Shown one piece after another: positions 21,106 to 54,221 of a DNA stretch of 64,000 nucleotides. The notes below the pieces were generated by a model. The model ran no database searches and was not told the DNA's origin. It saw nothing but the letters and a program-made list of their open reading frames with translations. The stretch lies in contig JAHIYU010000072.1 in NCBI GenBank assembly GCA_018814885.1, forward strand, positions 2,211-66,210. The letters run 5' to 3'. The stretch's first letter is position 1. Every line of letters begins with the position of its first letter. The translations under genes and the position numbers were made by a program. The stretch comes from a bacterium (GTDB lineage Bacteria; Krumholzibacteriota; Krumholzibacteriia; LZORAL124-64-63).

Positions 21106-21116
21106 ATCGACCGCGT

Positions 21117-24803: not shown

Positions 24804-24885
24804 TGTCCCGGTCGAATTGAACATGCCCTGGCTTCGCGGACACCAGACCGCGCCGGGTTCTGATCCGCTTGACGATGCGCGGCCG

Positions 24886-25365: not shown

Positions 25366-25471
25366 ATTCTTCTCCTTCATCTCGGAATTGCGCCGGATGG
25401 TACGGTGGCGGTCACAATGTAGGCCCAAGCCGGTTTCCGGCCAGGGATCGTCGTGCGGGGTCGTCGCTGCC

Positions 25472-25490
25472 GCGCGCGCCGGGCGCGCGC
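25472..25490. promoter_or_regulatory. 19-bp perfect GC palindrome (GCGCGCGCC-G-GGCGCGCGC) in the sodN / porin divergent intergenic region
   Basis: Read directly from the sequence. About 107 bp upstream of the sodN start and about 134 bp upstream of the divergent porin-like gene. Confidence 0.3.
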
Positions 25491-25623
25491 CAGTTGCGCC
25501 GGCGGGTATGACGGTGCTTCTTTGCAGCTGATCTTCCAGCCGCGCAGGGATTCACGGTCTCGCGGGTACAGAGACGTGCCGCTTCCTGCTCGGACCCGGC
25601 TCCCCGATTCCGGAGTAACGATC

Positions 25624-30351: not shown

Positions 30352-30431
30352 GGGGCTCCGTTTCGGGATCGCGTCGGGAGAGGATAGCATAGACCAGAGG
30401 CGCCGGGAGACGAAGGAAGGAAAGGGCGGGG

Positions 30432-32177
30432 TCAAATGTACGCGTTGCAGCGGGCGAGCAGTTCGCGCGCCGTGGCGAGCAGGGCCGCCCTCTCCTCCGG
30501 GGCCAGCCCGACGGCCGTCCTTATCCGGTTCAAGAAGTCGCCCGCGTTGCGCCGCAGGGCTTCGGGGGACGCCGGCAGCTGGGTCTCGTCGAACACGAAG
30601 GCCATGGTGCGGCGGGAATTGCGCATGCCCCGAGCGAGATGTCCGACCGCCTCGTCGTGGCGCCCATGGGCGATCTCGGTCAGCGTCTGGTAGATGAAGG
30701 CCTGCGGCACGGGCCCCCAGAAGAGCAGTCGGGGTCCCGCGTCGGCGAAGACCAGGGCGTCCAGGGGGACGTCCTCCAGGCGGCGTACCCAGGCCACGCC
30801 CCGCTCGCCGGCGCCGAAGACCTCGAGTCCGAGTTCACCGGCGAGCGCTGCGTACAGGACCGTCGGCAAGGGCAGATCGTCCGGCGCGGCGAGGCGGTCG
30901 CGCCTGCGGCCGGCGTCCTCGACCTGCAGGATGACGATCCGCCGGGACCGGTCGGCGTCGAACGAATCGAGGAGACGCAGCGCCTCGTGGGAGACGGCCG
31001 TGTGCAGGACCAGCGGGTCGGTGGGGTGCCCGTCGACGCCCCGGGCGGAGAGTCGGGCCTCGAACGCCGTCCAGCCCGCGGCCGCGGCGACGACCGCCAG
31101 GCACGCCGCCACGAGCGGGCGGAGTCGGCGGCGGACGCCCAGCAAGAGCTGGCCCAGCAGCAGAGCGACCGGCGCGAAGGCCAGGTAGGCCAACCGGGGT
31201 TCGACGCGGAATTCCACGGTCAGGACCGGGGCCAGGGACAGCAGGGCGGCCGCCAGCCAGGCGGCGGGACGCCTGTCGCCGGCGCGCCACCGATGCCGGG
31301 ACCAGAACATCCAGAGGGTCCACACCAGCAGGCCGGCCGCGAGCGCGGGCAGGTTGCCGTCCGGCACGAAGAAGGGCCACGGCGTCGCCAGCCACCAGCC
31401 GAAGGTGACCAGGTTCATCGGCAAAGCGGACAGGGGGTCCAGCACGTAGCCCGTGCCCGCGCCGTGGGGGAAGCCGCGCCACAGCAGCAGGGACTCGCCC
31501 GCGGCGGCGGCCGCCAGCACGACCGCGACGACCAGACGCCGGCGACGGCGGTCCCGCGCCCCCCCCCAGGCGAGCGGCCCCGCGAACAGGGGCAGGCACA
31601 GCGCGTTCTCCTTGGCGAAGATCGCCAGCACACCGGCGAGGGCACCGATGAAGAGGGCCCCCTTGCCGCCGGCCAGCAGGCGCTCGACCGCCAGCAGCAC
31701 CAGCGTGGCGCCCAGCAGTTCCTGCACGCCGGCGGCCCAGTAGAGGGGGGCGAACGCGAGGGGTGTGGCCGCGAACAGGAGTCCGGCCAGCAGGGCGGCC
31801 GGAGCGGACAGGCCGCAACGCCGGGCGATGCGTCTCACCAGGACGGCGGCGGCGGCGTGCAGCAGCAGCCGGGTCCAGGCCCAGGGGTCCGTCGCCAGGC
31901 CGAAGACGGGGTACAGCAATCGCCAGTACAGGACCTGGCTGACCGCGCGCGCGGGGAAGCCGTCGCCCCCGAGCAGGCCGGAGGCGCGGGCGAGCAGGGT
32001 CCAGTCGTCGCGGTTCCAGAAGGCGCCGAGGGCGGGCAGACGGCCCAGGACGGCGGCGGCCAGCACCAGCAGCGCGTCGCGTTGGGAGTCTGCGGCGACC
32101 GCGGTGCCGGTCTGGCGCGAATCCTGGATTCCGAAGCTGTCCGGCTTCTCCGGCAAGGTCACCTCCGACCATGACAA
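30432..32177 (-). CDS. Polytopic membrane protein, possibly a GT-C-fold glycosyltransferase (ArnT/PMT-like), with a C-terminal soluble domain
   Basis: About 11 TM helices in the first ~330 aa with an early NRDDW loop motif, then a ~230-aa soluble domain. Family assignment is tentative. Confidence 0.35.
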   Translation of the reverse strand: MSWSEVTLPEKPDSFGIQDSRQTGTAVAADSQRDALLVLAAAVLGRLPALGAFWNRDDWTLLARASGLLGGDGFPARAVSQVLYWRLLYPVFGLATDPWAWTRLLLHAAAAVLVRRIARRCGLSAPAALLAGLLFAATPLAFAPLYWAAGVQELLGATLVLLAVERLLAGGKGALFIGALAGVLAIFAKENALCLPLFAGPLAWGGARDRRRRRLVVAVVLAAAAAGESLLLWRGFPHGAGTGYVLDPLSALPMNLVTFGWWLATPWPFFVPDGNLPALAAGLLVWTLWMFWSRHRWRAGDRRPAAWLAAALLSLAPVLTVEFRVEPRLAYLAFAPVALLLGQLLLGVRRRLRPLVAACLAVVAAAAGWTAFEARLSARGVDGHPTDPLVLHTAVSHEALRLLDSFDADRSRRIVILQVEDAGRRRDRLAAPDDLPLPTVLYAALAGELGLEVFGAGERGVAWVRRLEDVPLDALVFADAGPRLLFWGPVPQAFIYQTLTEIAHGRHDEAVGHLARGMRNSRRTMAFVFDETQLPASPEALRRNAGDFLNRIRTAVGLAPEERAALLATARELLARCNAYI

Positions 32178-32305: not shown

Positions 32306-32959
32306 ATGAAGCGTACCCACGCTCTTTGGACGATCGCGTGCCTCTGCAGCCTGGCCGTCGTGGGCGGTTGCGGCGAACGGGCGCCCGGACCGGTGACCAT
32401 GGACGACGCGGAGCAGGAAGCCTGGGAGATCCGTCTGGTCGAGATGCGCATCGACAAGAACGAGCGCTTCACCGACCCGGAACAGACCCCGTTGATGGAG
32501 CAGGACCTGCCCGGCTTCGAGGGGCTCAACTACTACTACCCCGTGCCCGAATTGCGTTTCCGCGTGCCCTTCGTGGAGACGGCCGCCGCCGACACGGTGA
32601 CGCTGGTCAAGCGCCAGGGCGAATCGGTGAGATACCTGCGCAAGGGCCACGTCGCTTTCAAGCACGAAGGGTCCGTCTACAAGCTCCAGGCCTTCGGCCC
32701 GGTGGGCGCCGCGCCGGACGGCGATTATCTCTGGCTGCCCTTCTACGACGAGACGTCGGGGGAGGAGACCTTCGGCGGCGGTCGCTACCTGGACCTCGAG
32801 GTCGACGACGAGGGCATCGCGGAACTGGACTTCAACTTCGCCTACAACCCCCTCTGCGACTACAACCACGAACGCTACAACTGCACCCTGCCGCCCGAGG
32901 AGAACCGCCTGGAGATCCCCGTGCGCGCCGGCGAGAAGCTCTTCCGCCTGGAGGAATGA
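32306..32959 (+). CDS. DUF1684 domain lipoprotein
   Basis: Lipobox VVGGC. Motifs ETFGGGRYLDL and FNFAYNPLCDYN...YNCTLPP are characteristic of DUF1684. Confidence 0.75.
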   Translation: MKRTHALWTIACLCSLAVVGGCGERAPGPVTMDDAEQEAWEIRLVEMRIDKNERFTDPEQTPLMEQDLPGFEGLNYYYPVPELRFRVPFVETAAADTVTLVKRQGESVRYLRKGHVAFKHEGSVYKLQAFGPVGAAPDGDYLWLPFYDETSGEETFGGGRYLDLEVDDEGIAELDFNFAYNPLCDYNHERYNCTLPPEENRLEIPVRAGEKLFRLEE

Positions 32960-32969: not shown

Positions 32970-33515
32970 GTGGAGGCCGTGCTGGACACGTTGGGCGACA
33001 TCGGCGTCTGGATCGCCTTCGGGGTCTGGACGATGCTGCTGCTCTGCGGCGCGCTGATGACGATCCTCGGCCTGAGCGGCAACTTCATCATCGTCGGTCT
33101 GGGGCTCGTCCACGCGCTGGTGACCGGCTTCGATCCCATCTCCTGGCAACTGCTGCTGCTGCTGCTCGGCCTGGCCATCGTCGGCGAGGTGGTCGAATCC
33201 GTGCTCGGGGTCGTCTACGTGGCGCGCAAGGGCGCCACGCGTTACGGCGTGCTGGGGGCGTTCCTGGGCGGTCTGGCGGGCGCGGCGCTGGGCAGCGGCG
33301 TCGTGCCGGTGATCGGCACGGTCGTCGGCAGCTTCGTCGGCGCTTTTGCCGGGGCGGTGGCGGGGGAGTACCTGCGGGAGCGGCGGACCGACGCCAGCGT
33401 GCGCATCGGCTGGCACGCCTTCGCCGGCAAGATGCTGGCCAGCGGCTTCAAGTTCGCCCTGGCTTTGGCCATGATCGCGCTGCTGCTGCAGCGGGCGTGG
33501 CCGGGCTCGGCCTGA
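32970..33515 (+). CDS. DUF456 family membrane protein
   Basis: Four TM helices. Gly-rich GAFLGGLAGAALGSG...GSFVGAFAGAVAGE pattern typical of DUF456. Confidence 0.7.
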   Translation: MEAVLDTLGDIGVWIAFGVWTMLLLCGALMTILGLSGNFIIVGLGLVHALVTGFDPISWQLLLLLLGLAIVGEVVESVLGVVYVARKGATRYGVLGAFLGGLAGAALGSGVVPVIGTVVGSFVGAFAGAVAGEYLRERRTDASVRIGWHAFAGKMLASGFKFALALAMIALLLQRAWPGSA

Positions 33516-34589
33516 TCACTCCGACGACACGCCCGCCGCCCCGTAGGCCATCTGCTCGGTGGCCGCGACGCCCCAGCCTTCCCTTCCCACGGCGATCAGC
33601 CCCAGCGACCAGTCCTCCGGGAAATTCGCCACACCCCTCTCGACCGCCTCCCGCGCCGACAGGCCGTCGGCCAGCCAGCCGTAGACCGTGCGGGCCATGG
33701 CCGCGCGGATGATCTCCTCGCCGTGCCCCGTGCAGGCCACCGCGCCCGCGGGGCCGGCGAAGCAGCCGCAGCCGTAGATGGGCACGTCGCCCACGCGTCC
33801 GTTCAGGGTGATCGAGGTGCCGCCGGTGGACAGGGTGGCCGCGAAGGAGCCGTCGGCGGCGCGGGTCACCGTGCCGACGGTGTCGAAGATGTCGCGGGGG
33901 GTCAGGGGCAGGCCGGTATCGGGGTCGGCCTCTTCGGCGGGCAGCGACGGCGGGGGGCCGGGGAAATTCCAGGCCCGCCGCCAGTCGAAGGTGTCGTAGC
34001 CGCCGCCCGCCTCGCCGCGCAGCAGCCTGGCGATGCGCTGGCGATACTTGGCTGCGGCCTGTTCGCAGGTGGGCGTCTCGTCGGCGAAGCCCATGGCGTG
34101 GGCGAAGCGCGTGGCGCCGTCGCCGGCCAGCAGGCGGTGCGGCGTGTCGAGCACCGCCCGCGCCACCAGGATGGGATTGCGCACGTGTTCGATCACCGCC
34201 ACCGCCGCGAACGCGCCGTCGGAGGTCATCAGGGCCGCGTCCATCTGGATGGTGCGCCCGTCGAGGCGGATGTTGGCGCCGGTGCCGGCGTTCAGCAGCG
34301 GGTTGTCCTCCAGGACCAGGGTGCCGACCAGGGCGCCGGCTAGCGCGTCGCCGGTCGCCGCGGTCTCGGCCAGGGCGGCTCCCGCGGCCGACTGGATGTC
34401 CTCGGTCCAGGTCGAAGGCGACCCGACGCCGCCGTGGGTCACGGCGAGGGGGCCGTCGCGATCCTGCCCTCCGGCGAGCAGGACCACCTCGCGGCCGCCC
34501 GGATACCGGTCATCGTGGGAGTCGCCGCAGCCGCACAGCGACGCGGCGGTCGCCAGCAACAGCGAGAAGACGAACGGGCGGGGTCTCAT
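33516..34589 (-). CDS. Isoaspartyl peptidase / L-asparaginase (Ntn-hydrolase, plant-type asparaginase family) lipoprotein
   Basis: Lipobox SLCGCG. Autoproteolysis / active-site block DTVGTV (Thr nucleophile). GRVGDVPIYGCG block. AGGAGA RBS before ATG 34589. Confidence 0.8.
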   Translation of the reverse strand: MRPRPFVFSLLLATAASLCGCGDSHDDRYPGGREVVLLAGGQDRDGPLAVTHGGVGSPSTWTEDIQSAAGAALAETAATGDALAGALVGTLVLEDNPLLNAGTGANIRLDGRTIQMDAALMTSDGAFAAVAVIEHVRNPILVARAVLDTPHRLLAGDGATRFAHAMGFADETPTCEQAAAKYRQRIARLLRGEAGGGYDTFDWRRAWNFPGPPPSLPAEEADPDTGLPLTPRDIFDTVGTVTRAADGSFAATLSTGGTSITLNGRVGDVPIYGCGCFAGPAGAVACTGHGEEIIRAAMARTVYGWLADGLSAREAVERGVANFPEDWSLGLIAVGREGWGVAATEQMAYGAAGVSSE

Positions 34590-34597
34590 GGGGTCTC

Positions 34598-35200
34598 CTA
34601 CGGTTCGATGTTCAGGGCGAGGGTCAGGCTGGTCAGCGAGGCCCAAACTTCCAGGTCGCGCGTGGCGAAGGCGGCGTGCGAGATCTGAGGCGACAGCGAA
34701 AGCGCGCCGCCGAGGTGCAGTTCGTAGCCGCAGGCCAGCAGGTAACAGGTGCCGGTGTCGTGCATGATCTCCTGGCGGCCGCGTTCCAGGTAGTCGAGGC
34801 GGGCCGAGCCCAGGCCGTAACCCAGGCGTGCGAACAGGCCGCCTCGCCAGGGATGCCAGGTGACGGCCACGGCCGCGGTGATCAGATCGAGACGCGCCGA
34901 GGCGAGATCGTCGTCGGCCCGTCGCGACCAGGCGAGCAGCTCGACGCCGACGGTCAGATCGTCGAGCAGCCTGCAGCCGGCGCCCAGCTGCAGGGACGTG
35001 CCCGCCTCCCGGTCGTCCAGCCGCGGGATGCGGGCGTAATCGTCGTAGAGGCGCAGCACGTTGTCGGCCGTCCGACCCCAGCCCACGCCGGCTCCCAGCA
35101 CGAACAGCACGCCGGGGCCGCCGTCCGCCTCGATCGGCGCGGGCGCGCTCCGGGCGAAGGACGCGATCGACAGCAAGATCATCAGCAGGCACGTGCGCAT
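34598..35200 (-). CDS. Small secreted beta-rich protein, possibly an 8-strand outer-membrane barrel
   Basis: Signal peptide MRTCLLMILLSIASFARSAPA. About 180 aa with an alternating hydrophobic pattern. Stop lies 9 nt upstream of the asparaginase start. Confidence 0.4.
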   Translation of the reverse strand: MRTCLLMILLSIASFARSAPAPIEADGGPGVLFVLGAGVGWGRTADNVLRLYDDYARIPRLDDREAGTSLQLGAGCRLLDDLTVGVELLAWSRRADDDLASARLDLITAAVAVTWHPWRGGLFARLGYGLGSARLDYLERGRQEIMHDTGTCYLLACGYELHLGGALSLSPQISHAAFATRDLEVWASLTSLTLALNIEP

Positions 35201-35249
35201 CGGCCGATGCTAGGCGGTGGGGCGGGGCGCGTCAATCGGCGCGGTCGAC

Positions 35250-38200
35250 TCAGCGCCAGTTCCCGATGAGGATGAACGGCGCCCAGTAGTAAGGATGGGC
35301 GTAGTCGTCGCTGTTGCGCAGGGCGAGCTGGGCCTGCCGGAGCGCCTCGACCTTGGTCGTGCCGCCCTCGTGCAGGATGCGGTAGAGGTGCGTCATGAGC
35401 TGCGACGTGCTCTCGTCGTTGACCATCCACAGGCTGGCGATGACCGCCGCCGCGCCCGTCTGCTCGAAGTTGTAGGCCAGGCCGGCGATCTCCTTGCCCT
35501 CGCCGTGGTCGCCGACGGCCGTCTCGCAGGCCGAGAGCACGGCCAGGTCCACGTCGAAGAGTTCGAGCAGGACGATGTCGCGGAAGGTGAGGCGGGCGCT
35601 GTCGTCCTCGCCGGCCAGCACCAGGTAGGAAGCTTCGGGGCGATCGTTGAGCAGGACGCCGTGGGTGGCCAGGTGCAGGATGTTGTGGGTGCCGACCTCG
35701 TCGCGCAGCCGCGCCTTGGTGGCGTCCTCGCCGTAGACGGCCGTGACGGGCGCCGGCTGCCAGATCTCCTCCAGCTCGTTCACCTCGAGCTCGGCCCCGG
35801 CGAGCGTGCTGTCGGGGTTGCCGAAGGCGAGCAGGGCCGCGTCGGTCGGGACCGGCCGGCGCGATGTCAGCGTACCGGCCTGGGTCAGCACGCAGAGGCG
35901 ATAGCGTTCCAGCAGGTAGCGCTCGCCGTCGTAGAGGGCGGCGAAGGGGATGTAGCGCAGGCGCCCGCTCGGGCTGACGATCAGGGTCTCCACGCCGATC
36001 AGGTCGCCGGCCAGGGGGTCGATCAGCAGGGCGTGCAGCTCCCGCGCCGGTATGCTGGGATCGATACGCTCGGCTGGCGGCGCAGGCATGCCGGCCAGGC
36101 GCGCCGTGCGCGCGGTCTCCCAGTCGTCGTCGGGATGCTCCAGCCCGGCGCGCATCTCGCGGATCAGCTCGTCGACGCGAGCCTGTGCCACGGGCACCTC
36201 GCGGTAGATCAGCGGATCCTCGTCCCCGCGCACCACGAAGACGACGATCCGGTCGGGCAGGACCACCGGCTCCACGAAGGCCTCGGTCACGAGCAGGCCG
36301 CGCCGGAGCTGGTTGAAGGACACCGGCTCCACCTCCAGACGCTCGTAGGCCTGCGGGTGGTCGCGGCGCAGGGAGCGCGTGAAGTCGTGGAAGTGCAGCT
36401 TCAGGGAATCGATCTCCGTCTGCCAGACCGTGACGAGCTCCGGGCGCTGCTGCTCAACGGGCCGGGCCAGCTCCTCGCGCAGGAGGCGCACGAGGCGGGT
36501 CTCGTGGGAGCGCAGGCCCGCGGCCTCGTCCACCAGTGCCTGGTCGTCGTCGTTGAGGCGGGGGCCGCCGGCGCCCATCTCCCTGGCCTCCGAGGACTTC
36601 ATCAGGCCCAGGATCTCCCAGGCCTCCTCCTCGCGGCCGAGCTCCATCAGCACGTCGACCAGCTCGCGGTACACGTCCCCGTGCTTCTCCTGGAAGCCGC
36701 TGGCCACGTCCTCGTCTTCGATGCCCTGGCGCACCTGCTCCAGCGTGTCGATGGCCTCGCGGAAGGCGTCGACGGCGGGCTCGGGTTCGCCCCGGTCGCG
36801 CTGGATCCGGCCCAGGTAGAACAGGGGCTCCCACAGGAGGATCGGGTTGCGCATCTCGCGCAGCTGGGGGATGACCTCGCGCAGTCGCGACTCGGCTTCG
36901 GCGTGGCGGCCGCGCTTCCAGTCCACGGCGCCCAGCTTCGCGCCCATCTTCATGGTGGCCACGGTGGTGCCCATGGGTGCGGCGATCGTCAGGCCCTCCC
37001 GGATGGCCGTCGCCGCCTCGTCCAGCTCGTCCAGCTCGAAGAGCAGGTCCGCCCGGAAGATGTGCATGTCGATGATGCGCGGCGGCACGCCCACGCTCCG
37101 GGCCAGTTCCAGGCCGCGGTCGATCAGGTCCAGTGCCTCGTCGGTGCGGCCCAGTTCGTGGTAGCAGCGGGCCAGGTTGCCGGCGGTGATGGTCATGACG
37201 TCCACGTAGCCGATCCGCTCGCCGATCTCCAGGGCCTCGCGGAAGTGCTCCACGGCGGTTTCGCAGTCGCCCAGCTGGCGGTAGACGTCGCCCATGTTGT
37301 TGTGGGAGGCGGCCATGCCGTAGGGGTCGCCCCAGGCCTCGCGGATCTCCAGGGACAGGCGGTACAGGCCGAGGGAGTCTTCGTACAGGCCCTGGCCCCC
37401 GCGCGCCGAGCCCAGGGTGTTGTAGAGGTCGGCCAGCGCCCAGTCGTTGTCCTGTTCCTTGTAGATGTCGTAGGCGTCCTTGGCGGTCTGGAAGGCTATC
37501 TCCTCCTCCCCGTACAGGTGCTGCAACCAGGCCATGGCGCTCAGGATGCCCGCGACGCTGCCCTGCAGGTCGGCGGCCTCGGCGACGGCCATGGCCTCGG
37601 AGTAGGCGGCGACGGCCTCGTCGTAATCGCCGCGGGCGGCGTGGAGGCGCCCGAGTGCGGTCTGCGAGTCGGCGATGCCCGCCTGGTCCCCGGTCTCCCG
37701 GAAGAGGTCCAGGGCCGCGCGCATCCGCGCGAAGGCGTCGTCGATCCGGCCCGCATTGAACAGGCCCGTGGCGAGCATGGTCAGGGCCTGGGCCTCGTGC
37801 TGCTTGCTCGGCATGCTGCGGGCGATCTCCAGGGAGCGACCGGCGGCGGCGATGCCCGCCTCGTGGTCGCCGTCGAGACCGGTGTAGAGGTTGCTCAGGA
37901 CGCGCCAGATGTCCGCCTGGCCGCCGAGATTGCCGGCAGCCTCGCTCAGGGCCAGCGCGGTTTCGAGTTTGTCGCGGGCGGCAGCGGTCTCCTTGCGGCC
38001 GATGAGGCTGTAGCCCCACCACTCCAGCACCTTGGCCTCGCCGCCGGTGTCGCCCGCGCGGTGGTAGTCCGCCAGGGCCAGGGCGTAGACGCTGTCCGAC
38101 CGGGCGGGGTGCCCCATGCCCTCGTAGACCTCGGCGATCTCCAGCTCGGTCGCCGCGGCGTCCGCCGTCCAGTCGTCCCGGGCGAAGGTCTCCAGGGCCG

Positions 38201-39986
38201 AGCCGAGCAGCTCCAGGGCCCGGGGGTGGTTGCCCTTCTGGCGTTCGTCCTTGCCCATGCGCTTCAGCACGTCGGCCACGTCCCACCACTCCTCGCGGGC
38301 CTCGTGCACGGCCAGGGCCGACTGGTAGCGCTCCCGGGCGCTCGCGGCGTCCCCGAGCTGCCAGTAGATGGACCCGAGGTTGGTGTTGGCGATGGCGAGA
38401 TCGCGGTCGGCGCCCAGTTCCGTGTAGATGCGGACCGACTCCAGGCGCTCGTCAACGGCTTTCTGCAGCTCGCCCAGGTTCCAGAAGCCGTCGCTCATGT
38501 CGTCGTGGGCCGCGGCGACCGTCGCCGCCCAGTCGAGTTCCTCGGCCACGTACAGCTCGAGGGTCCAGGCGTCGATGGCCTCGCGGTAACGGCCGACCGC
38601 TTCGTAGGCGTCGCCCAGCTCGGAGAAGGTGCCGCACCGGCGCTGGATGTCCATCAGGCCGCCGCGACGGGCGAAGAGCTCGGCGGCCGCCGTCAGGGCC
38701 GCCGCCGCGGGTTCGGTCCGGCCCAGCCGGGTGAGGCACTGGCCCGCGCCGCGCCAGGATTCGGCGGCCTCCGGGTCGACGAGGGTGTCCTGCAGGGCAC
38801 CGTAGTGGTCCAGGGAGGCCTCGTAGCTGGCCAGGGCCTCCTCGTATTGCCCGTCGCTCTGCAGGACGTTGCCCAGGTTGTTGTGGGAGACGGCGCGGGA
38901 AACGGAGCCCGGCTCCGCGGCGGCGATCGCTTCCCGCCAGCAGCTTATGGACGCGCTCCATTCCTCGCGTCTCTGGTGCAGGTTCGCCTTGGCGCTCCAG
39001 TAGAGGTCCCAGAATCTTGGCACGTCGACGGCCTCGGCCAGCACGCCCATGGCGTCGATCACGGCCTCCTGTTCTTCCTCGCGCCACTCGGACTGGAAGC
39101 GCAGCGCTTCGGTGTACCACTCGTCGACGATCATCAAGTCGAGGGTGAAGTCGCGCTGCGCCGCCAGGTAGGCCAGGGCGTCCCCGCGCGCCATGTTCCG
39201 GGTCGCGTCCAGCAGTTCCAGCGACGAGGGGGGGGCCTCCGACAGGACCCAGTCGGCGAAGCTCTCCTCGACATACACGTTCCGCGCCGTGTACCAGCCG
39301 AAGTAGGAGGCCACGTACAAGAAGAAGATGCGGATGTCCTCGGGCGCGGTTTCGCCCATGACCTGTTGCGTGGTCTTGCCGGCGTAACGCCCCTGCTGGA
39401 GGGCCGCGTAGGCGTTCGGGTACTCCTCGACGGTCAGCCGCGCAGCCAGTTCCCGCACCGCGCGCGCGCAGGTGTCGAAGGTGCGCGCGTCGGGATCGTC
39501 ACCGGTGTCGGCGATCACGTCGTGATAGTCGAAGAGCACGTTCTGGTCAAGATCGTGGAACACGATGGCCTTGCGGGCTATCTGCCAGGTCAGGTAGTCC
39601 CGCTCGGGGCGGGGGCGCTCGAGACGCATCTCCACCACGTCGCCCAGGCGGATGGTGTCGCCCTCGGCGGGAAAGAGCAGGACGACGGAGACCGTGTCGG
39701 CGACGGCGGTCAGCTCCGCCTTGCCCACCACGCGGGAGCCCGTGTCGGCGGCGCCCCGGTAGACGTCGCGCAGGCCGCCGAGGACCACGCCGTGGATTTC
39801 GCCGACCTCGATCAGGCCGAACAGGCCTTGCTCGTCTGGCTCCAGGTAGGTGATGGGGATCATGATGTCGATCTCGAAGGTCGCGACATCGTCCCCGGCG
39901 ACGAGGCCGGCAGCCGGCAGGCAGGTGGCGAGGGCGACGAGCCAGGCAGCTGCACGTTTCCGGAGATCTCGTCCGCCAGCGATCAT
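35250..39986 (-). CDS. Giant TPR-repeat protein with C-terminal CHAT (caspase-HetF-associated) protease domain and N-terminal signal peptide
   Basis: Start at the Met of MIAGGRDLRKRAAAWLVALATCLPAAGLVAG; ATGA overlap with the upstream caspase gene. More than 15 TPR-like units (...NNLGNVLQSDGQYEEALASYEASL...). C-terminal CHAT blocks HLATHG, LAVLSACETAVGD, HPYYWAPFILIGNW. Confidence 0.8.
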   Translation of the reverse strand: MIAGGRDLRKRAAAWLVALATCLPAAGLVAGDDVATFEIDIMIPITYLEPDEQGLFGLIEVGEIHGVVLGGLRDVYRGAADTGSRVVGKAELTAVADTVSVVLLFPAEGDTIRLGDVVEMRLERPRPERDYLTWQIARKAIVFHDLDQNVLFDYHDVIADTGDDPDARTFDTCARAVRELAARLTVEEYPNAYAALQQGRYAGKTTQQVMGETAPEDIRIFFLYVASYFGWYTARNVYVEESFADWVLSEAPPSSLELLDATRNMARGDALAYLAAQRDFTLDLMIVDEWYTEALRFQSEWREEEQEAVIDAMGVLAEAVDVPRFWDLYWSAKANLHQRREEWSASISCWREAIAAAEPGSVSRAVSHNNLGNVLQSDGQYEEALASYEASLDHYGALQDTLVDPEAAESWRGAGQCLTRLGRTEPAAAALTAAAELFARRGGLMDIQRRCGTFSELGDAYEAVGRYREAIDAWTLELYVAEELDWAATVAAAHDDMSDGFWNLGELQKAVDERLESVRIYTELGADRDLAIANTNLGSIYWQLGDAASARERYQSALAVHEAREEWWDVADVLKRMGKDERQKGNHPRALELLGSALETFARDDWTADAAATELEIAEVYEGMGHPARSDSVYALALADYHRAGDTGGEAKVLEWWGYSLIGRKETAAARDKLETALALSEAAGNLGGQADIWRVLSNLYTGLDGDHEAGIAAAGRSLEIARSMPSKQHEAQALTMLATGLFNAGRIDDAFARMRAALDLFRETGDQAGIADSQTALGRLHAARGDYDEAVAAYSEAMAVAEAADLQGSVAGILSAMAWLQHLYGEEEIAFQTAKDAYDIYKEQDNDWALADLYNTLGSARGGQGLYEDSLGLYRLSLEIREAWGDPYGMAASHNNMGDVYRQLGDCETAVEHFREALEIGERIGYVDVMTITAGNLARCYHELGRTDEALDLIDRGLELARSVGVPPRIIDMHIFRADLLFELDELDEAATAIREGLTIAAPMGTTVATMKMGAKLGAVDWKRGRHAEAESRLREVIPQLREMRNPILLWEPLFYLGRIQRDRGEPEPAVDAFREAIDTLEQVRQGIEDEDVASGFQEKHGDVYRELVDVLMELGREEEAWEILGLMKSSEAREMGAGGPRLNDDDQALVDEAAGLRSHETRLVRLLREELARPVEQQRPELVTVWQTEIDSLKLHFHDFTRSLRRDHPQAYERLEVEPVSFNQLRRGLLVTEAFVEPVVLPDRIVVFVVRGDEDPLIYREVPVAQARVDELIREMRAGLEHPDDDWETARTARLAGMPAPPAERIDPSIPARELHALLIDPLAGDLIGVETLIVSPSGRLRYIPFAALYDGERYLLERYRLCVLTQAGTLTSRRPVPTDAALLAFGNPDSTLAGAELEVNELEEIWQPAPVTAVYGEDATKARLRDEVGTHNILHLATHGVLLNDRPEASYLVLAGEDDSARLTFRDIVLLELFDVDLAVLSACETAVGDHGEGKEIAGLAYNFEQTGAAAVIASLWMVNDESTSQLMTHLYRILHEGGTTKVEALRQAQLALRNSDDYAHPYYWAPFILIGNWR

Positions 39987-42052
39987 CGGTCCTCCTGTGC
40001 AGGTCCGTCGGTCACGATGAAGCTCACCGTGGCGGTGGCCCACTTGCCCGGCGCGACGCTCGTCGTGCTGCGTTCGCCCAGGGTAGCCGCTCGCAGCAGC
40101 TGTCCCAAGGGGGATTCGTCGTCGCGCGGCCCGGCGCTGCGGTTTCGTTCCAGGTCGCGGATGGCGTCGCGGTCCAGCAGCGGGCTGAAATCGGCGGGCT
40201 CGGCCGTGGCGATGGCCTTGAACATCTCGGCGCCGCTGGGTCCGTCGATGCGGAAGATGAACGGCGCCGGGATGCGCACCCACTGTCCGTCGGCGACGAT
40301 GCGGTTGTCCTGGACCCGCAGTCCGGGATAGGGCCACAACGGCCCGATCTCGCCCTCGCCGCGCAGGTCCAGCACCGTCACGTAGGCGTCCAGGAAGCCG
40401 GTGTTGCGCAGCTCGAGCATGACGTGGGTGCCGGCCGGTATCTCCCGGAGGCCGCCGTCGCCCGGAGGCAGGTCCAGGTCGCCGAGCACCTCCTGGGCGT
40501 AACCGGCGGCGGCGAGGCGCACTTCCACCGGCGCCAGGCGCAGCTCGATGTCCACCTGGGCGTAGGGATCGTCGTTCTCGAGGCCGCTGACGAACCGCCA
40601 GCGCGATTCGCCCTCCAGGGCGCGCGCGATCCTTGCGGACAGCTCCGGGCCCACCGGTGCGGCCGCCAGCTCCGATCCGTCCCGCCGCTCGAGGCGGATG
40701 GCGTCGCCCGTGGGGGCGTCGAGGCGCACGTCCCAGCGCTCGGCGGCGCCGGGTCCCGTGTCCAGCAGGGGCAGGTCGGAGAGGGTCTCGCGCAGGCCGT
40801 CCCAGGACGCGCTCGCGTCTAGGGCCGACAGGTCCACCTTGAGCCGATTGTCGCCGTAGCTGTGCTCGACCTCGATGGCCCGCGCGGCGCGCAGATCCTC
40901 GATCGATACGGTCGCCTCCGGCGCCAGGGCGAGCTGAGCGTAGCTGAGATCGACCCGCGAGACGACGGCCTCGGCCAGCGGCGCGGCCGAGGCGAAGTCG
41001 CGGGTGCCGGCGGGGAAGAGGGCGTAGCGCGAGTCGCGGGTGATCCCCTGCAGGGAGCCGGCCTCCAGGAAGACGCCGCCGCCGGGGTCGCCGGTGACTG
41101 GGATGTAGGCCGGCGGCGTCACGCCCGCGCCGGCGAAGAGCAGCCGGTCGAGCTCGCCTTCGACCTGGGGCGTCTGTCGCCGGTTGCGACGCAGCATGAG
41201 GTCGCCCATGCGCTCGTAGAGGTCGCGGTAGGTGGTCGCGGCGTCAGCCTCCTGCGCGGCGGCGATCAGGGCGTAGGTGAACAGGCCCATCACGTTCCCG
41301 TCGTCGTCCTCCGTCTCCGCGGCGAGCTGTCCCTGGCTGGTGGCCGATATCACGACGTAGCCCCTGGCCGCGGGGTGGCTGGCCGGGGCGATGCCGCTGC
41401 CGCCGTCCGGGACGCCATCTGTCACGGGCGGCCGCCGCGACCCGCCGTCGTCCCCGGGCCACGACTGGCCCCTGACGAGCATGCGCCCGGCGCGCGTGGC
41501 GGTGCCCGAGTAGCAGCAGTCGAAGGTCAGGGTGACGTTGCCCGGATGCTTCTCGCTCAGGTCCTCCAGCAGCCGGGCGATCTCGTCGTCGCGGATGTTG
41601 CGCGAGCCGTCCCGCTTGGACACGTAGTCCGACGGGACCAGCGACTCGTCCAGGCCGTCCAGCTCGTCGCCGTCGTCGTCGGGCACGGTGGTGCCGTGGC
41701 CGGAATAGTGGAAGTAGACGATGTCGTCCACGCCCGTCGGCGCGATCAGCCACGCGCGGAAGGCGCCGACGATCGCTTCGTGGGTGGTTTTCTCGGGCGC
41801 GGACAGGATCTTCACGTCGTCGGGGGAAAAACCGAAGCGCCGGGTGAGCATGGTGGCGATCGCCGCCACGTCGGCGCCGCTGTGCAGGTCGGCCATGTCG
41901 TCTGGCCCGCCCCGCTTGTACTGGGAGATGCCAACGAGCAGGGCGCGCTTGCCCGGCTCGGCGGCGGCGTGCGGGGGGAAGCCCCGCGCGACGGCGGCAG
42001 AGGCCGCCGTCGCGCAGGCCAGCAGGAAGATCGAGAGGCGACGCGTCTTCAT
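39983..42052 (-). CDS. Caspase-family (peptidase C14) domain protein with signal peptide and a ~400-aa C-terminal extension
   Basis: Signal peptide MKTRRLSIFLLACATAASAAVA. Catalytic dyad context YFHYSGHG (His) and FDCCYSG (Cys), as in caspases / metacaspases. Confidence 0.75.
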   Translation of the reverse strand: MKTRRLSIFLLACATAASAAVARGFPPHAAAEPGKRALLVGISQYKRGGPDDMADLHSGADVAAIATMLTRRFGFSPDDVKILSAPEKTTHEAIVGAFRAWLIAPTGVDDIVYFHYSGHGTTVPDDDGDELDGLDESLVPSDYVSKRDGSRNIRDDEIARLLEDLSEKHPGNVTLTFDCCYSGTATRAGRMLVRGQSWPGDDGGSRRPPVTDGVPDGGSGIAPASHPAARGYVVISATSQGQLAAETEDDDGNVMGLFTYALIAAAQEADAATTYRDLYERMGDLMLRRNRRQTPQVEGELDRLLFAGAGVTPPAYIPVTGDPGGGVFLEAGSLQGITRDSRYALFPAGTRDFASAAPLAEAVVSRVDLSYAQLALAPEATVSIEDLRAARAIEVEHSYGDNRLKVDLSALDASASWDGLRETLSDLPLLDTGPGAAERWDVRLDAPTGDAIRLERRDGSELAAAPVGPELSARIARALEGESRWRFVSGLENDDPYAQVDIELRLAPVEVRLAAAGYAQEVLGDLDLPPGDGGLREIPAGTHVMLELRNTGFLDAYVTVLDLRGEGEIGPLWPYPGLRVQDNRIVADGQWVRIPAPFIFRIDGPSGAEMFKAIATAEPADFSPLLDRDAIRDLERNRSAGPRDDESPLGQLLRAATLGERSTTSVAPGKWATATVSFIVTDGPAQEDR

Positions 42053-42066
42053 GACTGCGGCGATCC

Positions 42067-44226
42067 CTACGGCGACGGGGTCGCCCTGAGGGCCGCCTCG
42101 GGGTTCACCTTGCCGTGGCCCCACAGCTCGTTGGGCACCGCGCCGGTCTGCCGGTCGGAGGTGGCCGAACGAACGAGGATCTCTTTCACCGCCGCAGCGT
42201 CCAGTCCGGGATTCTTGTCCAGCATCAGCGCGACCAGCCCCGACACATAGGGCGCCGAGGCGCTAGTGCCCTCCCAGGCCAGGTGGAGGCCGTCGGAGGT
42301 GGTGTGCTCGCTGCCACCGGAAAGAGCCATCTCGCTGGCGGCGGCCTTGGCCGAGATGGCGAACCGGCCCGGCGCGACCAGATCGGGCTTGATCACGCCG
42401 TCGATGCGGTAGCCCGGGCTGCTGTAGTCCGAGATGCCGCCCAGTTCCAGGTTGTAACGGGTGGACGTGTCGCTCCAGTTGGTCCACTCGTTGCGGAAGT
42501 CGTAGGAGCCGACCGTGATCACGCCGTCGGCGTTGCCGGGCGAGCCGACCATCCGCGTGTGGACGGCGCCTCGCCCGAAGCTCGCCTGGAAGTACAGGGG
42601 CAGGTAGAAGTCGAAACTGCCGTCGACCACGTCCCAGGTGGTGCCGAAGGCACAGACCTGATAGCTGCCGGGCAGCACGGGCACGGCGACGACCTCGCGC
42701 TCGTTGCTGGCGTCGGCGAAGGTGATGGCGGCGAACCACTCGCTCAGATCGGTGGTCGCCAGGTTGTCGCTGACGACCATGCTCAGGGAGTCGTCGACGT
42801 TCTTCAGGTAGACCACGCCCGGATTGCCGTACTCGTCGGTCAGGAAGTTGTTCAGGCCGGCGATGGCGAAGCCCCAGTCGTCCTCGGCGTCGAAGTAGGC
42901 GTGGAGCTGTGTGGTTTCGCTGACGAAGAGCTCCACCGGGGCGCTCTCCACGTCCATCTGTCCCTCGGCGCGGGGGCCGAAGCGCCCGCTGGTGTGGAAG
43001 CTCATGCGGCCTTCGTTGCCTGCGGAGACGCAGATCACCACGCCGGGCTGCCGCACCAGTTCGTTGAAGAGTTGCTCCTCGGCGGCGTTGCCGTCGTGGG
43101 CGCTGCCGTGCCCGCCCAGGCTCAGGTTGATGACGCAGGGACGGCCCAGACCGCGCGCGGTCTCGGCGATCCACTCCACGGCCTTCACGTATTCGCTCTC
43201 GAAGGAGCCGTCGCCCGCGCGACAGATCATCAGGTCGGCCTCGGGCGCCAGACCCGCCCAGGTGCCGGCCGGCACGCCGTAGGCGGTGGCCAGTCCGTTG
43301 CCCGCGGCGATCGACGCGCAGGCCGTGCCGTGGCCCACCACGTCGACCGAGTTGCAGACGCCGCTGCCGGCGAGGGCGGCGTTCAGTTGATCCCGTGTGT
43401 AGAGGGTGCCCTGCTTGATATCGAGGTCCAGGCCCATGTATTCGATGCCCACCGGCGCCTCGTTGCCGATGGTGCCGCCGCTGTCGTCGTAGCTCGAATC
43501 CAGCATGTCCCAGAGGTACATGATGCGCGATTCGCCGTCCTCGTTCACGAAATCGCCGTGACGCCAGTCGATGCCGGAATCGACCACGCCGACGATGACG
43601 CCCTCGCCCGTCAGGCCCTGGTGGTCGAATCCGCCCTCGCCGCGCATGCCGAGCACCTTGTCGGCGAAGCTCGCCTTGGCGCGGGTCGGCGGTTCGGGAA
43701 TGCGCGTGGGCTTGACGACGTCGACGTCCTGGACGGCCTCGATGCGGGCCAGCCGCAGCAGACCCGCCACCGGCACGTCCGCCATCACACGGTTCCCGTG
43801 CACGCTGTACACGGCGATGCCGGCGTTGGCCAGGGCGGAAACGTCGTGCCCGTCCGCCAGGGCGATGGAGACCCGCACCAGCGGCTGGGGATCGTCGCCC
43901 GCGATGCCGAAGATGAGGTCCAGCTGCTCGTCGCTGTACGCGAAATCCGAAGGATTGCGCCTGTCCCCGGTGAACTGCGCGTAAAGATTGCGCAGCTCCG
44001 GCGCGAGCTTGTCCAGTTCCGACTCGCCGCGGGTCAGGAAGGGGGTGGTCTTCAGGGTGTCGGTGGGGTAGGGGAACCTGTCCAGCCCCTTCGCTCCCCC
44101 GGCGCAAGCGCTGTCGAGGGACGGCGACACCAGGGCGGCGATCGTCAGGACGGCCGCCGCGGCGAAGATCAATCCGCGCCTCCCGCCGGACGAACGATGA
44201 TGATTCGGCCTCATTGTCAACGACAT
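42067..44226 (-). CDS. Secreted S8-family subtilisin-like serine peptidase
   Basis: Asp motif VGVVDSGID, His motif VGHGTACASIAAG, Ser motif GTSASAPYVSGLVALM. AAGGAGAA RBS before ATG 44226. N-terminal signal-like hydrophobic segment. Confidence 0.85.
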   Translation of the reverse strand: MSLTMRPNHHRSSGGRRGLIFAAAAVLTIAALVSPSLDSACAGGAKGLDRFPYPTDTLKTTPFLTRGESELDKLAPELRNLYAQFTGDRRNPSDFAYSDEQLDLIFGIAGDDPQPLVRVSIALADGHDVSALANAGIAVYSVHGNRVMADVPVAGLLRLARIEAVQDVDVVKPTRIPEPPTRAKASFADKVLGMRGEGGFDHQGLTGEGVIVGVVDSGIDWRHGDFVNEDGESRIMYLWDMLDSSYDDSGGTIGNEAPVGIEYMGLDLDIKQGTLYTRDQLNAALAGSGVCNSVDVVGHGTACASIAAGNGLATAYGVPAGTWAGLAPEADLMICRAGDGSFESEYVKAVEWIAETARGLGRPCVINLSLGGHGSAHDGNAAEEQLFNELVRQPGVVICVSAGNEGRMSFHTSGRFGPRAEGQMDVESAPVELFVSETTQLHAYFDAEDDWGFAIAGLNNFLTDEYGNPGVVYLKNVDDSLSMVVSDNLATTDLSEWFAAITFADASNEREVVAVPVLPGSYQVCAFGTTWDVVDGSFDFYLPLYFQASFGRGAVHTRMVGSPGNADGVITVGSYDFRNEWTNWSDTSTRYNLELGGISDYSSPGYRIDGVIKPDLVAPGRFAISAKAAASEMALSGGSEHTTSDGLHLAWEGTSASAPYVSGLVALMLDKNPGLDAAAVKEILVRSATSDRQTGAVPNELWGHGKVNPEAALRATPSP

Positions 44227-44372
44227 GGTCTTCTCCTTAGCGATGTTCCAGGATCGATGGTTTCTGTCAGGCTAGCCGGAATCCAACATTTTGTCGTCCA
44301 TTTCTGTCGAACTGAGTGTTTAGCTCGTTTCCTTTCCGGCACTCGCGGGCGCGGGGCGGGTCTGGGACCGTC

Positions 44373-44389
44373 GATAAATTTGATTTATC
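44373..44389. promoter_or_regulatory. AT-rich perfect inverted repeat GATAAAT-ttg-ATTTATC in the divergent intergenic region between the S8 peptidase and the MFS transporter
   Basis: Read directly. An AT palindrome stands out in about 70% GC DNA. Candidate operator site. Confidence 0.3.
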
Positions 44390-44469
44390 ATGAACATGGC
44401 CGGTAAACAGGCCGGCCGTTGCCGAGTTCCCGCGTTGTGGACGGTCCGGCGGGATGCCATCTTACGGTC

Positions 44470-45798
44470 ATGCGCGACGAAGTGTCCCGGGAATCGCGCG
44501 AGGATGCGGTCCTCGCCAGCCTCACGACCCGCCGTTACCTGCTGGGCATGGTTTTCCAGGGGGTGTGGTGGGCCGGCTACCTGCTGTTCCCCTTCGTCCT
44601 CGCCAAGTCCCTGCACGCGCCCGGAGCCCTGGTCACCCTGGCGGTGACCATGGACACCGCCGGCATGCTGTTGGCCCTGTACTGGGGACACCTGATGGCC
44701 CGCCGCGGCCGGCGGCGCTGGCTCCTGCGGGGCGGTCTCGGCGGCCGCCTGATCCTGCTGCTGACGCCCCTGGCGACCACTCCCGTCGCCTTCGTGGCGC
44801 TCCTGGCGGTCGTGCATTTCTTCGGCTCGCTGGTCTATCCCGCCGTCAACGGCATCCTGCAGGCCAACCTGCCCGCGGACAGGCGGGGGCGGGTCTTCGG
44901 CCAGGGCGCCCTGATCCAGAACCTCACGACGGCGGCGATCAGCCTCGCGGTGGGCGCCCTGCTGGAGCGGGATGCCGGGCTGTACCGCGCGATCTTCCCC
45001 GTCATGGGCACGTCGGGCTTCGTCTACCTCTGGATCCTCAGCCGCCTGCCGCGGCCCGCGGGAGATACCGCCGTGGATCCGCCGGCGGGCTTCGCCGACA
45101 TCTTCACGGTGCCACGCCTGCCCCTGGGACCGGTCCGCTGGCGGAGGCTGGCGGCCGCGCTGGCGACTCCCTTCCGCCAGGCGCTGCAGACCTACCGGGA
45201 GGACCGGGCCTATCTCTGGTACGAGATCAACTTCATGATCTACGGCACGGCCTTCATGATGCTCAATCCCGTGGTGCCGCTGTACTTCACCGAACGCCTG
45301 GATCTGGGCTACGCGCAGATCACCAACGCCCGCGTCCTGATCGCCTCGCTGGGTGTGGCGGTACTGGGCCCGCTGACCGGACGCCTCATGGACCGCTTCC
45401 ACCCGGTGCGTCTCTGCACGATCGCCTTCGCGGTGCTGGTCCTGTATCCGGCGGCCCTGGCCCTCGCGGGCCGGTTCTCCGTCCTGTCGCCGGCGGCGGC
45501 GGCCTATCTCGCCTTCGGCGTCTACGCCCTAGGCATGTCGGGGGTCAACGTCGCCTGGCACGTCGGATCGATCTCCTTCGCGCCGCCCGGTCAGGGGGGA
45601 TACTACCAGGGCATACACGTGACCATGGTGGGCGTGCGCGGCGTGGTCGGACCGCTGGCCGGGTACGCCGTGCTGAGGCTGCTGGGCTACCTGGAGGTCT
45701 TCGTCGCGGCGGCTATCTTCTTCCTGCTGGCGTCGTTCTCGTCGGTTTTCCTGTGGCGGTGGATGAAACGAGCGGCGGACGCGTCCGGCGAGGTCTGA
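44470..45798 (+). CDS. MFS transporter
   Basis: Twelve predicted TM helices. MFS-like loop motif GHLMARRGRRRW between TM2 and TM3. Confidence 0.7.
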   Translation: MRDEVSRESREDAVLASLTTRRYLLGMVFQGVWWAGYLLFPFVLAKSLHAPGALVTLAVTMDTAGMLLALYWGHLMARRGRRRWLLRGGLGGRLILLLTPLATTPVAFVALLAVVHFFGSLVYPAVNGILQANLPADRRGRVFGQGALIQNLTTAAISLAVGALLERDAGLYRAIFPVMGTSGFVYLWILSRLPRPAGDTAVDPPAGFADIFTVPRLPLGPVRWRRLAAALATPFRQALQTYREDRAYLWYEINFMIYGTAFMMLNPVVPLYFTERLDLGYAQITNARVLIASLGVAVLGPLTGRLMDRFHPVRLCTIAFAVLVLYPAALALAGRFSVLSPAAAAYLAFGVYALGMSGVNVAWHVGSISFAPPGQGGYYQGIHVTMVGVRGVVGPLAGYAVLRLLGYLEVFVAAAIFFLLASFSSVFLWRWMKRAADASGEV

Positions 45799-47338: not shown

Positions 47339-47537
47339 GGCCCGATGTTAACGGCAGCGCCGAGCGCGGGGAAGGCCGGAAGTCGTTGAAATCCGTGATC
47401 AAATCGGGACAAATGTACGGTATTATATATACTGGTGAAGATTGGTCATGTGCTCGCATGGTCGCCGCGGCGGCATCCCATTGGTGTGCCCGGGGAAGGC
47501 TGCGGGCTGTAAGGTGTCAATTTGCAGGAGGTTGAAA

Positions 47538-54135: not shown

Positions 54136-54221
54136 GGTTTATTGTTGAAAATGTATCTCTAATAGGGTATTCTAATCACGATTGATCCTCGCCCATATTT
54201 ATTGTCAGAAAGGAAAGCACT

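Follow-up and report, generated by a model that had tools for sequence, protein, structure and literature searches.

Do a subtilase, a caspase-like protease and a CHAT-domain protease that are encoded side by side on one strand form a working unit, and where in the cell would such a unit act? The question is raised by a 64,000-nucleotide stretch of bacterial DNA (assembly GCA_018814885.1, contig JAHIYU010000072.1), called the window below, whose minus strand carries genes for a subtilisin-like serine protease (S8), a caspase-like cysteine protease (C14) and a protease with tetratricopeptide repeats and a CHAT domain (TPR-CHAT). A first reading of the letters alone (the sequence-only reading) had suggested that the three might act in an extracytoplasmic activation cascade with a developmental, fratricidal or anti-phage role. 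We found that S8, C14-DUF4384 and TPR-CHAT genes form a conserved, pairwise-linked network across phyla, and that the unit in the window is more than a chance juxtaposition. We consider it very probable that these proteases are coupled in function as one exported module.

Operon layout and linkage of the protease genes

Open reading frame (ORF) listing and codon-position GC delimited five tightly packed, co-directional genes on the minus strand at positions 33516-44226 of the window (G+C of the window ~68%). The order of the products is S8 subtilase, C14 caspase with a DUF4384 domain, TPR-CHAT, a small beta-barrel protein and an Asparaginase_2 lipoprotein, and Pfam bore out, domain by domain, the five-gene run that had been named from the letters. 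The genes and the adjoining intergenic region are as follows (aa, amino acids).

42067..44226, minus strand: Peptidase_S8 (PF00082, E 5e-37; 719 aa)
39983..42052, minus strand: Peptidase_C14 with DUF4384 (PF00656, E 5e-20; 689 aa)
35250..39986, minus strand: TPR array with CHAT (PF12770, E 5.5e-65; 1578 aa)
34598..35200, minus strand: small outer-membrane beta-barrel-like protein (weak PF13505 and PF03797; 200 aa)
33516..34589, minus strand: Asparaginase_2 (PF01112, E 3e-53)
44227..44453, unstranded: intergenic region between S8 and the divergent gene, probable operon promoter region (sequence read directly)

Direct reading of the junctions confirmed the spacing of 14 nt between the S8 stop codon TAG and the C14 ATG, and the overlap of the C14 TGA with the CHAT ATG as ATGA, which has AGGAGG 5 nt upstream. 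From ORF coordinates, the CHAT and beta-barrel genes are 49 nt apart and the beta-barrel and asparaginase genes 8 nt apart; the latter gap had been given as 9 nt, and the TPR-CHAT protein as 1579 aa instead of the actual 1578 aa. An AAGGAG ribosome-binding site precedes the S8 ATG, and a terminator scan inside the operon gave no convincing internal terminator. Codon-position GC places a divergent plus-strand gene (44454-45798) at the upstream boundary and convergent plus-strand genes (32306-32959, DUF1684; 32970-33515) at the downstream boundary. A promoter consensus scan of 44227..44453 gave no match, and we only infer that the operon promoter lies there. Overall, the layout supports one translationally coupled unit of the three proteases.

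Conservation of this arrangement was assessed in 80 loci taken from GTDB species genomes by alignment of the C14 family, together with three further members of the S8 subfamily looked up from long contigs (L087, L088, L089); all loci were scanned with purpose-built profile models, and the set centred on C14-DUF4384 comprised 84 non-redundant loci. These C14-centred loci came from Acidobacteriota, Armatimonadota, Myxococcota, Planctomycetota, Gemmatimonadota, Bacteroidota, Gammaproteobacteria and Nitrospirota. A TPR-CHAT gene lay within 10 kb in 32 of the 84 (38%), often adjacent and on the same strand. The S8 of the window belongs to a sharply bounded subfamily of orthologues (~35 clusters), after which scores fall from ~348 to 258 bits. 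Among the 11 loci with an S8 orthologue, the window included, nine had TPR-CHAT and nine had C14-DUF4384. A metagenome scan for more loci of the subfamily gave, among the matches listed, distant S8 relatives only; 80 loci centred on these non-orthologous relatives served as a control and gave one weak CHAT match and one weak C14 match. The synteny of S8, C14 and TPR-CHAT on which the sequence-only reading depended is therefore conserved, both by the C14-centred count and by the comparison of 9/11 S8 loci with 1/80 controls.

The order of the genes varies between relatives. The locus of a close relative (L001, caspase 81% identical) has the same five-gene order; three others (L002, L003, L005; 40-52% identity) keep S8, C14-DUF4384 and TPR-CHAT together but rearranged, and in L004 only C14 and TPR-CHAT are left together. 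In two loci the S8 orthologue adjoins tandem exported TPR-CHAT paralogues and there is no C14-DUF4384, with four paralogues at L087 12272-22136 and three at L089 1-9866. In L088 it is clustered with WD40-C14, C14-DUF4384 and one more C14 gene, and with TPR and CHAT genes. L087 and L089 have another cluster in common, with GAF, small S8, cyclic-nucleotide-binding helix-turn-helix and LanKC-like kinase/cyclase genes.

The two remaining genes of the operon behave differently. By sequence search, the beta-barrel and asparaginase genes were found in 1 of 86 loci (L001), and they were not in any more distant locus whose genes were listed. We rejected them as core parts and regard them as accessory because they accompany the unit only here and in L001; the sequence-only reading had them rightly as operon members, but they are no part of the wider conserved module. 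The small beta-barrel protein has a signal peptide and matches outer-membrane barrel and autotransporter-like profiles weakly, and its L001 orthologue carries PF13505 (OMP_b-brl). This 200-aa protein was also considered as a gasdermin and rejected, given its outer-membrane beta-barrel look with a signal peptide and no gasdermin match in Pfam or PADLOC. The asparaginase gene encodes an isoaspartyl peptidase / L-asparaginase of the N-terminal nucleophile hydrolase type with a lipoprotein-like N-terminus; its match to the NCBIfam beta-aspartyl-peptidase model is below the cut-off.

The three proteases and their predicted export signals

Features within the three protease genes are listed below in the order S8, C14, TPR-CHAT.

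44098..44226, minus strand: signal-like peptide of S8, MSLTMRPNHHRSSGGRRGLIFAAAAVLTIAALVSPSLDSACAG, which includes an RR pair (heuristic and orthologues)
41984..42052, minus strand: signal peptide of C14, MKTRRLSIFLLACATAASAAVA/R, putative cut before R (heuristic and alignment of homologues)
41696..41698, minus strand: catalytic His119 of C14, SGHG motif (invariant in 24 sequences)
41513..41515, minus strand: catalytic Cys180 of C14, D-C-C-Y-S-G motif (invariant in 24 sequences)
41366..41509, minus strand: predicted disordered linker, C14 residues 182-229, right after the catalytic Cys (predicted local distance difference test score, pLDDT, <50; AlphaFold2)
40196..40390, minus strand: DUF4384, residues 555-619 of C14 (Pfam)
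39894..39986, minus strand: signal-like peptide of TPR-CHAT, MIAGGRDLRKRAAAWLVALATCLPAAGLVAG (heuristic and orthologues)
36591..38894, minus strand: TPR array, ~residues 365-1132 (TPR_12, TPR_1, TPR_2 and TPR_MalT matches)
35259..36050, minus strand: CHAT domain, residues 1313-1576 (PF12770, E 5.5e-65, profile positions 3-289 of 289)

Both cysteine proteases retain their catalytic residues, the substitution of which would have spoken against the proposed activity. In C14, the dyad of H119 (SGHG) and C180 (D-C-C-Y-S-G) is invariant in 24 homologues, and the codons were checked. In TPR-CHAT, the dyad consists of H1442 (ATHG) and C1487 (SACET); among 39 CHAT neighbours the His is present in 37 and the Cys in all 39. 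The S8 protein has D216, H299, N404 and S655, that is, the Asp-His-Ser triad and the oxyanion Asn in subtilase order, at least 95% conserved among 32 orthologues.

PF00082 matches S8 in two stretches, with an insert of ~140 aa that splits the catalytic domain, and a region of ~160 aa without a Pfam match precedes the catalytic domain and is possibly a propeptide. Among solved structures, those nearest to S8 are CspB, CspA and CspC, the germination subtilases of clostridia (E ~1e-24). Matches to the NCBIfam models for CspBA and CspC fall below cut-off (NF040809, 116 bits against 1250; NF040808, 94 against 675), and by these scores S8 is a structural and sequence relative of the Csp subtilases only, not a member of the family. 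The window encodes another S8 subtilase of 963 aa with a CarboxypepD_reg domain (12333-15224, minus strand); the profile of the CHAT-linked S8 subfamily misses it, which makes it a different kind of S8.

The best matches of the C14 profile in the PDB are the metacaspases Yca1, MCA2 and AtMC4/9. An acidic D-x-D-G-x-D-E stretch and D178 are conserved in the homologues and are suggestive of metacaspase-type specificity (Arg/Lys, Ca2+). Behind the protease domain lies a C-terminal extension of ~380 aa with three beta-rich domains, DUF4384 among them. The family is large, with 171 full-length homologues and at least 570 matches in GTDB species genomes, and its C-terminal module is matched at E<=1e-30 by 285 clusters at 50% identity. 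The full-length AlphaFold2 model (pLDDT 77.5) contains a single long disordered segment, residues 182-229, and in the alignment of 24 sequences this linker holds the invariant residues T186, R187, R194 and G195. A disordered linker with invariant residues right after the catalytic Cys is as expected of an activation loop, and, with the p20-p10 linkers of caspases and metacaspases as a model, we regard it as a candidate cleavage site for activation. C14 was also considered as a lipoprotein on account of an LLAC motif; this was rejected, as homologues do not share the Cys and there are basic residues too near to it.

TPR-CHAT consists of a signal-like peptide, an N-terminal domain of ~310 aa, a TPR array of ~770 aa and the C-terminal CHAT domain, and only about seven full-length orthologues were found, at 48-79% identity. 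The N-terminal domain had no Pfam or PDB match. The sole sequence match of the CHAT domain in the PDB was 8rot_B, a 991-aa 'CHAT domain-containing protein' (E 0.009), with both dyad residues aligned. The name of the entry does not say so, but we take it to be the structure of DdvA, because His862 and Cys907 of DdvA lie in the aligned range, consistent with its ATHG and AACE motifs. A 100%-identical TPR-CHAT record (P0121) is a partial protein of 1234 aa from a 3.7-kb contig.

The signal-peptide calls rest on conservation and on a heuristic of hydrophobicity and charge rather than on a trained predictor. Each of the five operon products has a basic n-region at its N-terminus and, behind it, a hydrophobic h-region; AXA-like sites are also present and conserved. 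A hydrophobic N-terminal segment occurs in 109 of 117 C14 homologues with a Met start. For TPR-CHAT, a signal-like N-terminus is found in five of six full-length orthologues (P0122-P0127; the exception is P0126), in 16 of 18 CHAT neighbours inspected and in 42 of 74 homologues overall. The S8 orthologues of L001, L002, L003, L005, L009, L087 and L089 have an equivalent basic and hydrophobic N-terminus; that of L088 has none, and the genes of L088 look fragmented. In the public annotation, the S8 protein (NCBI protein P0201) has 701 aa, with an implied start 18 codons downstream at which the basic n-region is lost. The signal calls on which the sequence-only reading relied thus held up under the heuristic and in orthologues, and all three proteases are likely exported. 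Its picture of TPR-CHAT proteins as Craspase partners or parts of cytoplasmic modules needs correcting, since the periplasmic DdvA has already been described and 42 of the 74 homologues are signal-like.

As to the destination, a domain scan found no sorting domain of the type IX secretion system (T9SS; FlgD_ig / Por_Secre_tail) on S8, C14 or TPR-CHAT. Secreted proteins encoded nearby and generic S8 relatives do have such domains. The absence of this domain from the three proteases suggests a place in the periplasm or at the outer membrane, not in the medium; the proteases would reside in the periplasm, and the module probably sits in the cell envelope.

Neighbourhoods here and in other lineages

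The genes around the operon that were checked look like ordinary chromosomal genes (aconitase, M24 peptidase, MltF-like transglycosylase, spermidine synthase-like), and the window encodes many further exported hydrolases and peptidases, including the second S8, M24 and M48 enzymes. It holds no second copy of any of the three protease families. A repeat scan of the window revealed no CRISPR array and no tandem array, and a CRISPR association of the operon was rejected, there being no repeat array in the window; the sole tandem repeat, a 30-bp unit in 1.9 copies at 25218-25274, is probably insignificant. No Cas domain was found in the five operon proteins and 18 neighbouring ORFs scanned. For the operon proteins, the matches in PADLOC and PHROGs were all of generic protease and TPR kinds ('caspase', 'subtilase' and 'TPR' in PADLOC), and no known defence system was among them.

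Two large exported proteins of the window (47442-50540, plus strand; 29008-30435, minus strand) have C-terminal FlgD_ig / Por_Secre_tail sorting domains of the T9SS type. These tags indicate that the organism secretes by them and hint at a candidate phylum of the Fibrobacterota-Chlorobiota-Bacteroidota (FCB) group. G+C falls to 0.60-0.63 at 18000-26000 and to 0.585 at 54000-56000, against ~0.69 elsewhere. Genes in these stretches encode a B12-binding radical SAM / DUF4070 protein (21624-23096), a GDSL lipase-like protein (23553-24803) and a beta-helix protein (54222-55319), and the stretches may have been acquired horizontally. In a 796-aa protein encoded at 6269-8659 (plus strand), LVIVD repeats occur together with an FGE-sulfatase (formylglycine-generating enzyme-like) domain.

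In other lineages, where neighbouring ORFs were clustered and then annotated with Pfam, the C14-DUF4384 gene keeps regulatory company. Genes for a sigma factor of the extracytoplasmic function (ECF) type and for a zf-HC2 anti-sigma factor are directly beside it in at least 12 of the 84 loci (Nitrospirota, Gammaproteobacteria, Acidobacteriota), and CHAT is also present in some of these (L055, L058, L075); in L004 an ECF sigma gene lies two genes upstream. WD40-C14 paralogues are frequent nearby.

Further neighbours of C14-DUF4384 recur. In 10 loci of Bacteroidota, a signal-peptide protein of ~470 aa without a Pfam match always directly adjoins it (L068, 8579-9976, plus strand; L030, L035, L050, L053, L054, L059, L060, L062, L077). 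In Nitrospirota, up to three tandem DUF4384 genes encode lipoprotein-like products with long Q/G/Y/D/P-rich repeats (~10 copies of DPYANQQGYDPNQGGYGQ) and adjoin the ECF sigma, zf-HC2 anti-sigma and C14-DUF4384 genes (L081, 2842-8185, minus strand; L071, L083, L069, L072, L085). WD40-repeat proteins, some fused to C14, occur in several loci, and genes for CHASE2, an extracellular sensor domain, in two (L003, 1-1042; L006, 8545-9960).

A proposed relay, its alternatives and known systems

How might the three proteases work together? We propose a relay of zymogen activation. TPR-CHAT would bind a protein or peptide cue through its long TPR array. CspB is an extracytoplasmic convertase that activates the zymogen pro-SleC, and the Csp-like subtilase of the operon may serve as a convertase in the same way. 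TPR-CHAT, S8 or both would cut C14 in the linker 182-229, which has the invariant R187 and R194-G195. Activated C14 would then cleave targets in the envelope; it is expected to be specific for Arg/Lys because it is metacaspase-like, and in some lineages its targets probably include a transmembrane anti-sigma factor. We infer in this scheme the order of cleavage, the cue and the physiological output, which may be stress or danger signalling or cell death. That this specific relay works as described is a tentative proposal, somewhat more likely to need revision than to stand unchanged; for the module and its zymogen-activation relay taken together we put the probability at about 0.5.

Several observations count against the relay. 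The sequence gives no direction of cleavage among the three proteases, and the window contains neither an ECF sigma or anti-sigma gene nor an identifiable effector or substrate gene. Within the C14-centred set, linkage to S8 was seen in no more than 7 of 84 loci; because of this, and because CHAT is near C14 in 38%, the three proteases are separable, and in most genomes C14 clearly works with other partners or alone. The isoaspartyl peptidase gene in the operon fits peptide catabolism. The signal heuristic does not separate membrane anchors from cleaved signals. The C-terminal extension of C14, for which the sequence-only reading had advised a fold search, yielded DUF4384 by Pfam, but the fold search itself gave no informative match.

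The alternative that fares best is a specific sub-case of the relay with a defined output. Here the proteases would be site-1 enzymes of an envelope-stress or danger pathway that cleave a transmembrane anti-sigma factor encoded elsewhere and so release an ECF sigma factor, as proposed for DdvA/DdvS. The ECF sigma and zf-HC2 genes beside C14-DUF4384, some of them with CHAT, and the ECF gene of L004 speak for it, as does DdvA, whose periplasmic TPR-CHAT (PMC11506125) is the nearest to the CHAT domain among solved structures. Two cytoplasmic systems add to this: Csx29 cleaves the anti-sigma-like Csx30, some variants of which have DUF4384, and PCaspase cleaves a sigma-factor fusion. The TPR-CHAT of the window, however, is a free exported protein that is not fused to an anti-sigma domain, and neither the 64-kb window nor the gene lists of L001, L002, L003, L005, L087 and L089 contain an ECF sigma or anti-sigma gene. 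We consider this output unlikely for the operon in the window, though it is the strongest of the competing accounts.

Alternatively, the operon might encode ordinary co-regulated exported enzymes for protein and peptide scavenging without any cascade, with the barrel for uptake and the isoaspartyl peptidase clearing beta-aspartyl peptides. S8 enzymes are typical scavenging proteases, the operon does end with genes for an isoaspartyl peptidase and an outer-membrane barrel, and many other exported hydrolases and peptidases are encoded in the window. But the link of the proteases to the barrel and asparaginase does not extend beyond L001, and S8, C14 and CHAT have none of the T9SS sorting domains of the organism's secreted proteins and of generic S8 relatives. 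Clan CD proteases, moreover, are processing enzymes of narrow specificity. A 770-aa TPR array, tandem TPR-CHAT paralogues and ECF/anti-sigma neighbourhoods do not fit digestion either, and the three-way linkage recurs across phyla but is missing from the control S8 loci. Scavenging is thus an improbable explanation.

The weakest alternative is that the genes encode a module for abortive infection or cell death in the cytoplasm, of the Craspase, CBASS-CHAT (CBASS, cyclic oligonucleotide-based antiphage signalling system) or gasdermin-protease type, and that the signal peptides are start-codon artefacts; we judge this very improbable: TPR-CHAT, C14 and S8 are indeed protease types of such systems (PMC8851545; 10.1101/2023.06.23.546230; PMC10028731) and PADLOC returned its generic matches, but the hydrophobic N-termini are conserved in orthologues with independently called starts, strong ribosome-binding sites precede the chosen starts, the window has no CRISPR or tandem array, the five operon proteins have no SAVED, STAND NTPase, Cas or gasdermin match, and the flanking genes checked look ordinary chromosomal.

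The exported, coupled module with its relay can also be extended to a bolder picture, which is speculative and in our view rather unlikely. It could be an envelope-level innate-immune or danger cascade, a bacterial counterpart of complement or Toll-Spaetzle, in which diversifying exported TPR-CHAT paralogues would be receptors for foreign periplasmic proteins (phage, predator, toxin) and the Csp-like convertase together with CHAT would fire a caspase-like executioner outside the cytoplasm. The outcome would be suicide or an ECF-sigma defence before foreign nucleic acid reaches the cytoplasm.

Bacterial caspase-like and CHAT proteases have been studied almost entirely as cytoplasmic anti-phage effectors, and here their pairing occurs in exported form. 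Its relatives span at least eight phyla; it has a subtilase as a dedicated partner and, in other lineages, ECF sigma / anti-sigma genes as neighbours. The module occurs widely and has gone unstudied, and its presumed function is the one set out above. If the relay is true, it would offer a simple model for the detection of periplasmic threat or stress in bacteria, a model for the activation of clan CD zymogens outside the cell, and a handle on the role of the widespread DUF4384 domain. The locus also gives a setting in which to test what has been proposed for DdvA, namely that a TPR-CHAT in the periplasm is a protease activated by a signal.

The closest mechanistic precedent among known systems is that of SAVED-CHAT and PCaspase from the type III-B CRISPR / CBASS system of Haliangium ochraceum, which is cytoplasmic and triggered by cyclic triadenylate (cA3). 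There, SAVED-CHAT cleaves and activates the neighbouring PCaspase, which then cuts further targets, a sigma-factor fusion among them (Steens et al., bioRxiv 10.1101/2023.06.23.546230). CHAT and caspase-like genes stand side by side in both cases. The operon in the window differs in having no SAVED domain, nucleotide sensor or CRISPR array, with a TPR array in place of SAVED, and in having signal-like peptides on all proteins and a Csp-like S8 as an extra conserved partner. PADLOC found no CBASS or CRISPR components among the five operon proteins, and Pfam found only TPR and CHAT on the CHAT protein.

DdvA of M. xanthus is a periplasmic TPR-CHAT anti-sigma factor with a His-Cys dyad and a solved structure, and according to its authors' proposal it senses a protein cue in the periplasm and cleaves itself as the site-1 step (Bernal-Bernal et al., PMC11506125). 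It shares the dyad with the TPR-CHAT described here, at weak similarity (E 0.009), and a location outside the cytoplasm, which for the latter is predicted. DdvA has ~990 aa and a transmembrane helix that leads to a cytoplasmic zinc anti-sigma domain, and it pairs with the ECF sigma factor DdvS; in contrast, TPR-CHAT is a free exported protein of 1578 aa with an unrelated N-terminal domain, no zf-HC2 and no ECF/anti-sigma gene nearby.

Type III-E Craspase has the same TPR and CHAT architecture in Csx29, and the DUF4384 of some Csx30 proteins is also found on C14. According to Kato et al. (bioRxiv 10.1101/2022.08.17.504292), DUF4384 is one variant of the C-terminal domain of Csx30, an anti-sigma-like protein that the TPR-CHAT protease Csx29 cleaves; we take this as no more than a lead, by which DUF4384, TPR-CHAT proteolysis and ECF sigma control may be tied together. 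Craspase itself is a cytoplasmic complex guided by RNA and associated with CRISPR, and its Csx29 is far shorter than the TPR-CHAT protein. The window has no Cas7-11, CRISPR array, Csx30, Csx31 or RpoE, and its TPR-CHAT bears a signal-like peptide. Proteases of the S8, caspase-like and TPR-CHAT types also pair with fungal and bacterial gasdermins and are encoded next to their substrate (PMC8851545); those proteases are cytoplasmic and without signal peptides, and there is no gasdermin here.

The individual proteases have known relatives as well. The Csp germination subtilases CspB, CspA and CspC (PDB 4i0w and others) have the same insert-split catalytic domain as S8, but identity is ~30% over parts only, scores are far below the family cut-offs, and organism, context and presumed substrate all differ. 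C14 shares with orthocaspases and metacaspases (C14B; Yca1, MCA2, cyanobacterial orthocaspases) the p20-like domain, the SGHG His and the D-x-C-x-SG Cys. Some orthocaspases of cyanobacteria have been described with DUF4384 as an accessory domain (PMC7475262). The C14 subfamily described here adds a signal peptide and the conserved ~380-aa extension with its three beta-rich domains, and no member of this C14-DUF4384 subfamily is characterised.

The statement of the sequence-only reading that the cascade is not a described system is accordingly half right. Activation of a caspase-like protease by CHAT is known, in the cytoplasm, and our literature searches found no published description of an exported S8, C14-DUF4384 and TPR-CHAT module. 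The locus is neither categorically new nor already known, and is best seen as an exported, subtilase-associated version of the CHAT / caspase-like relay.

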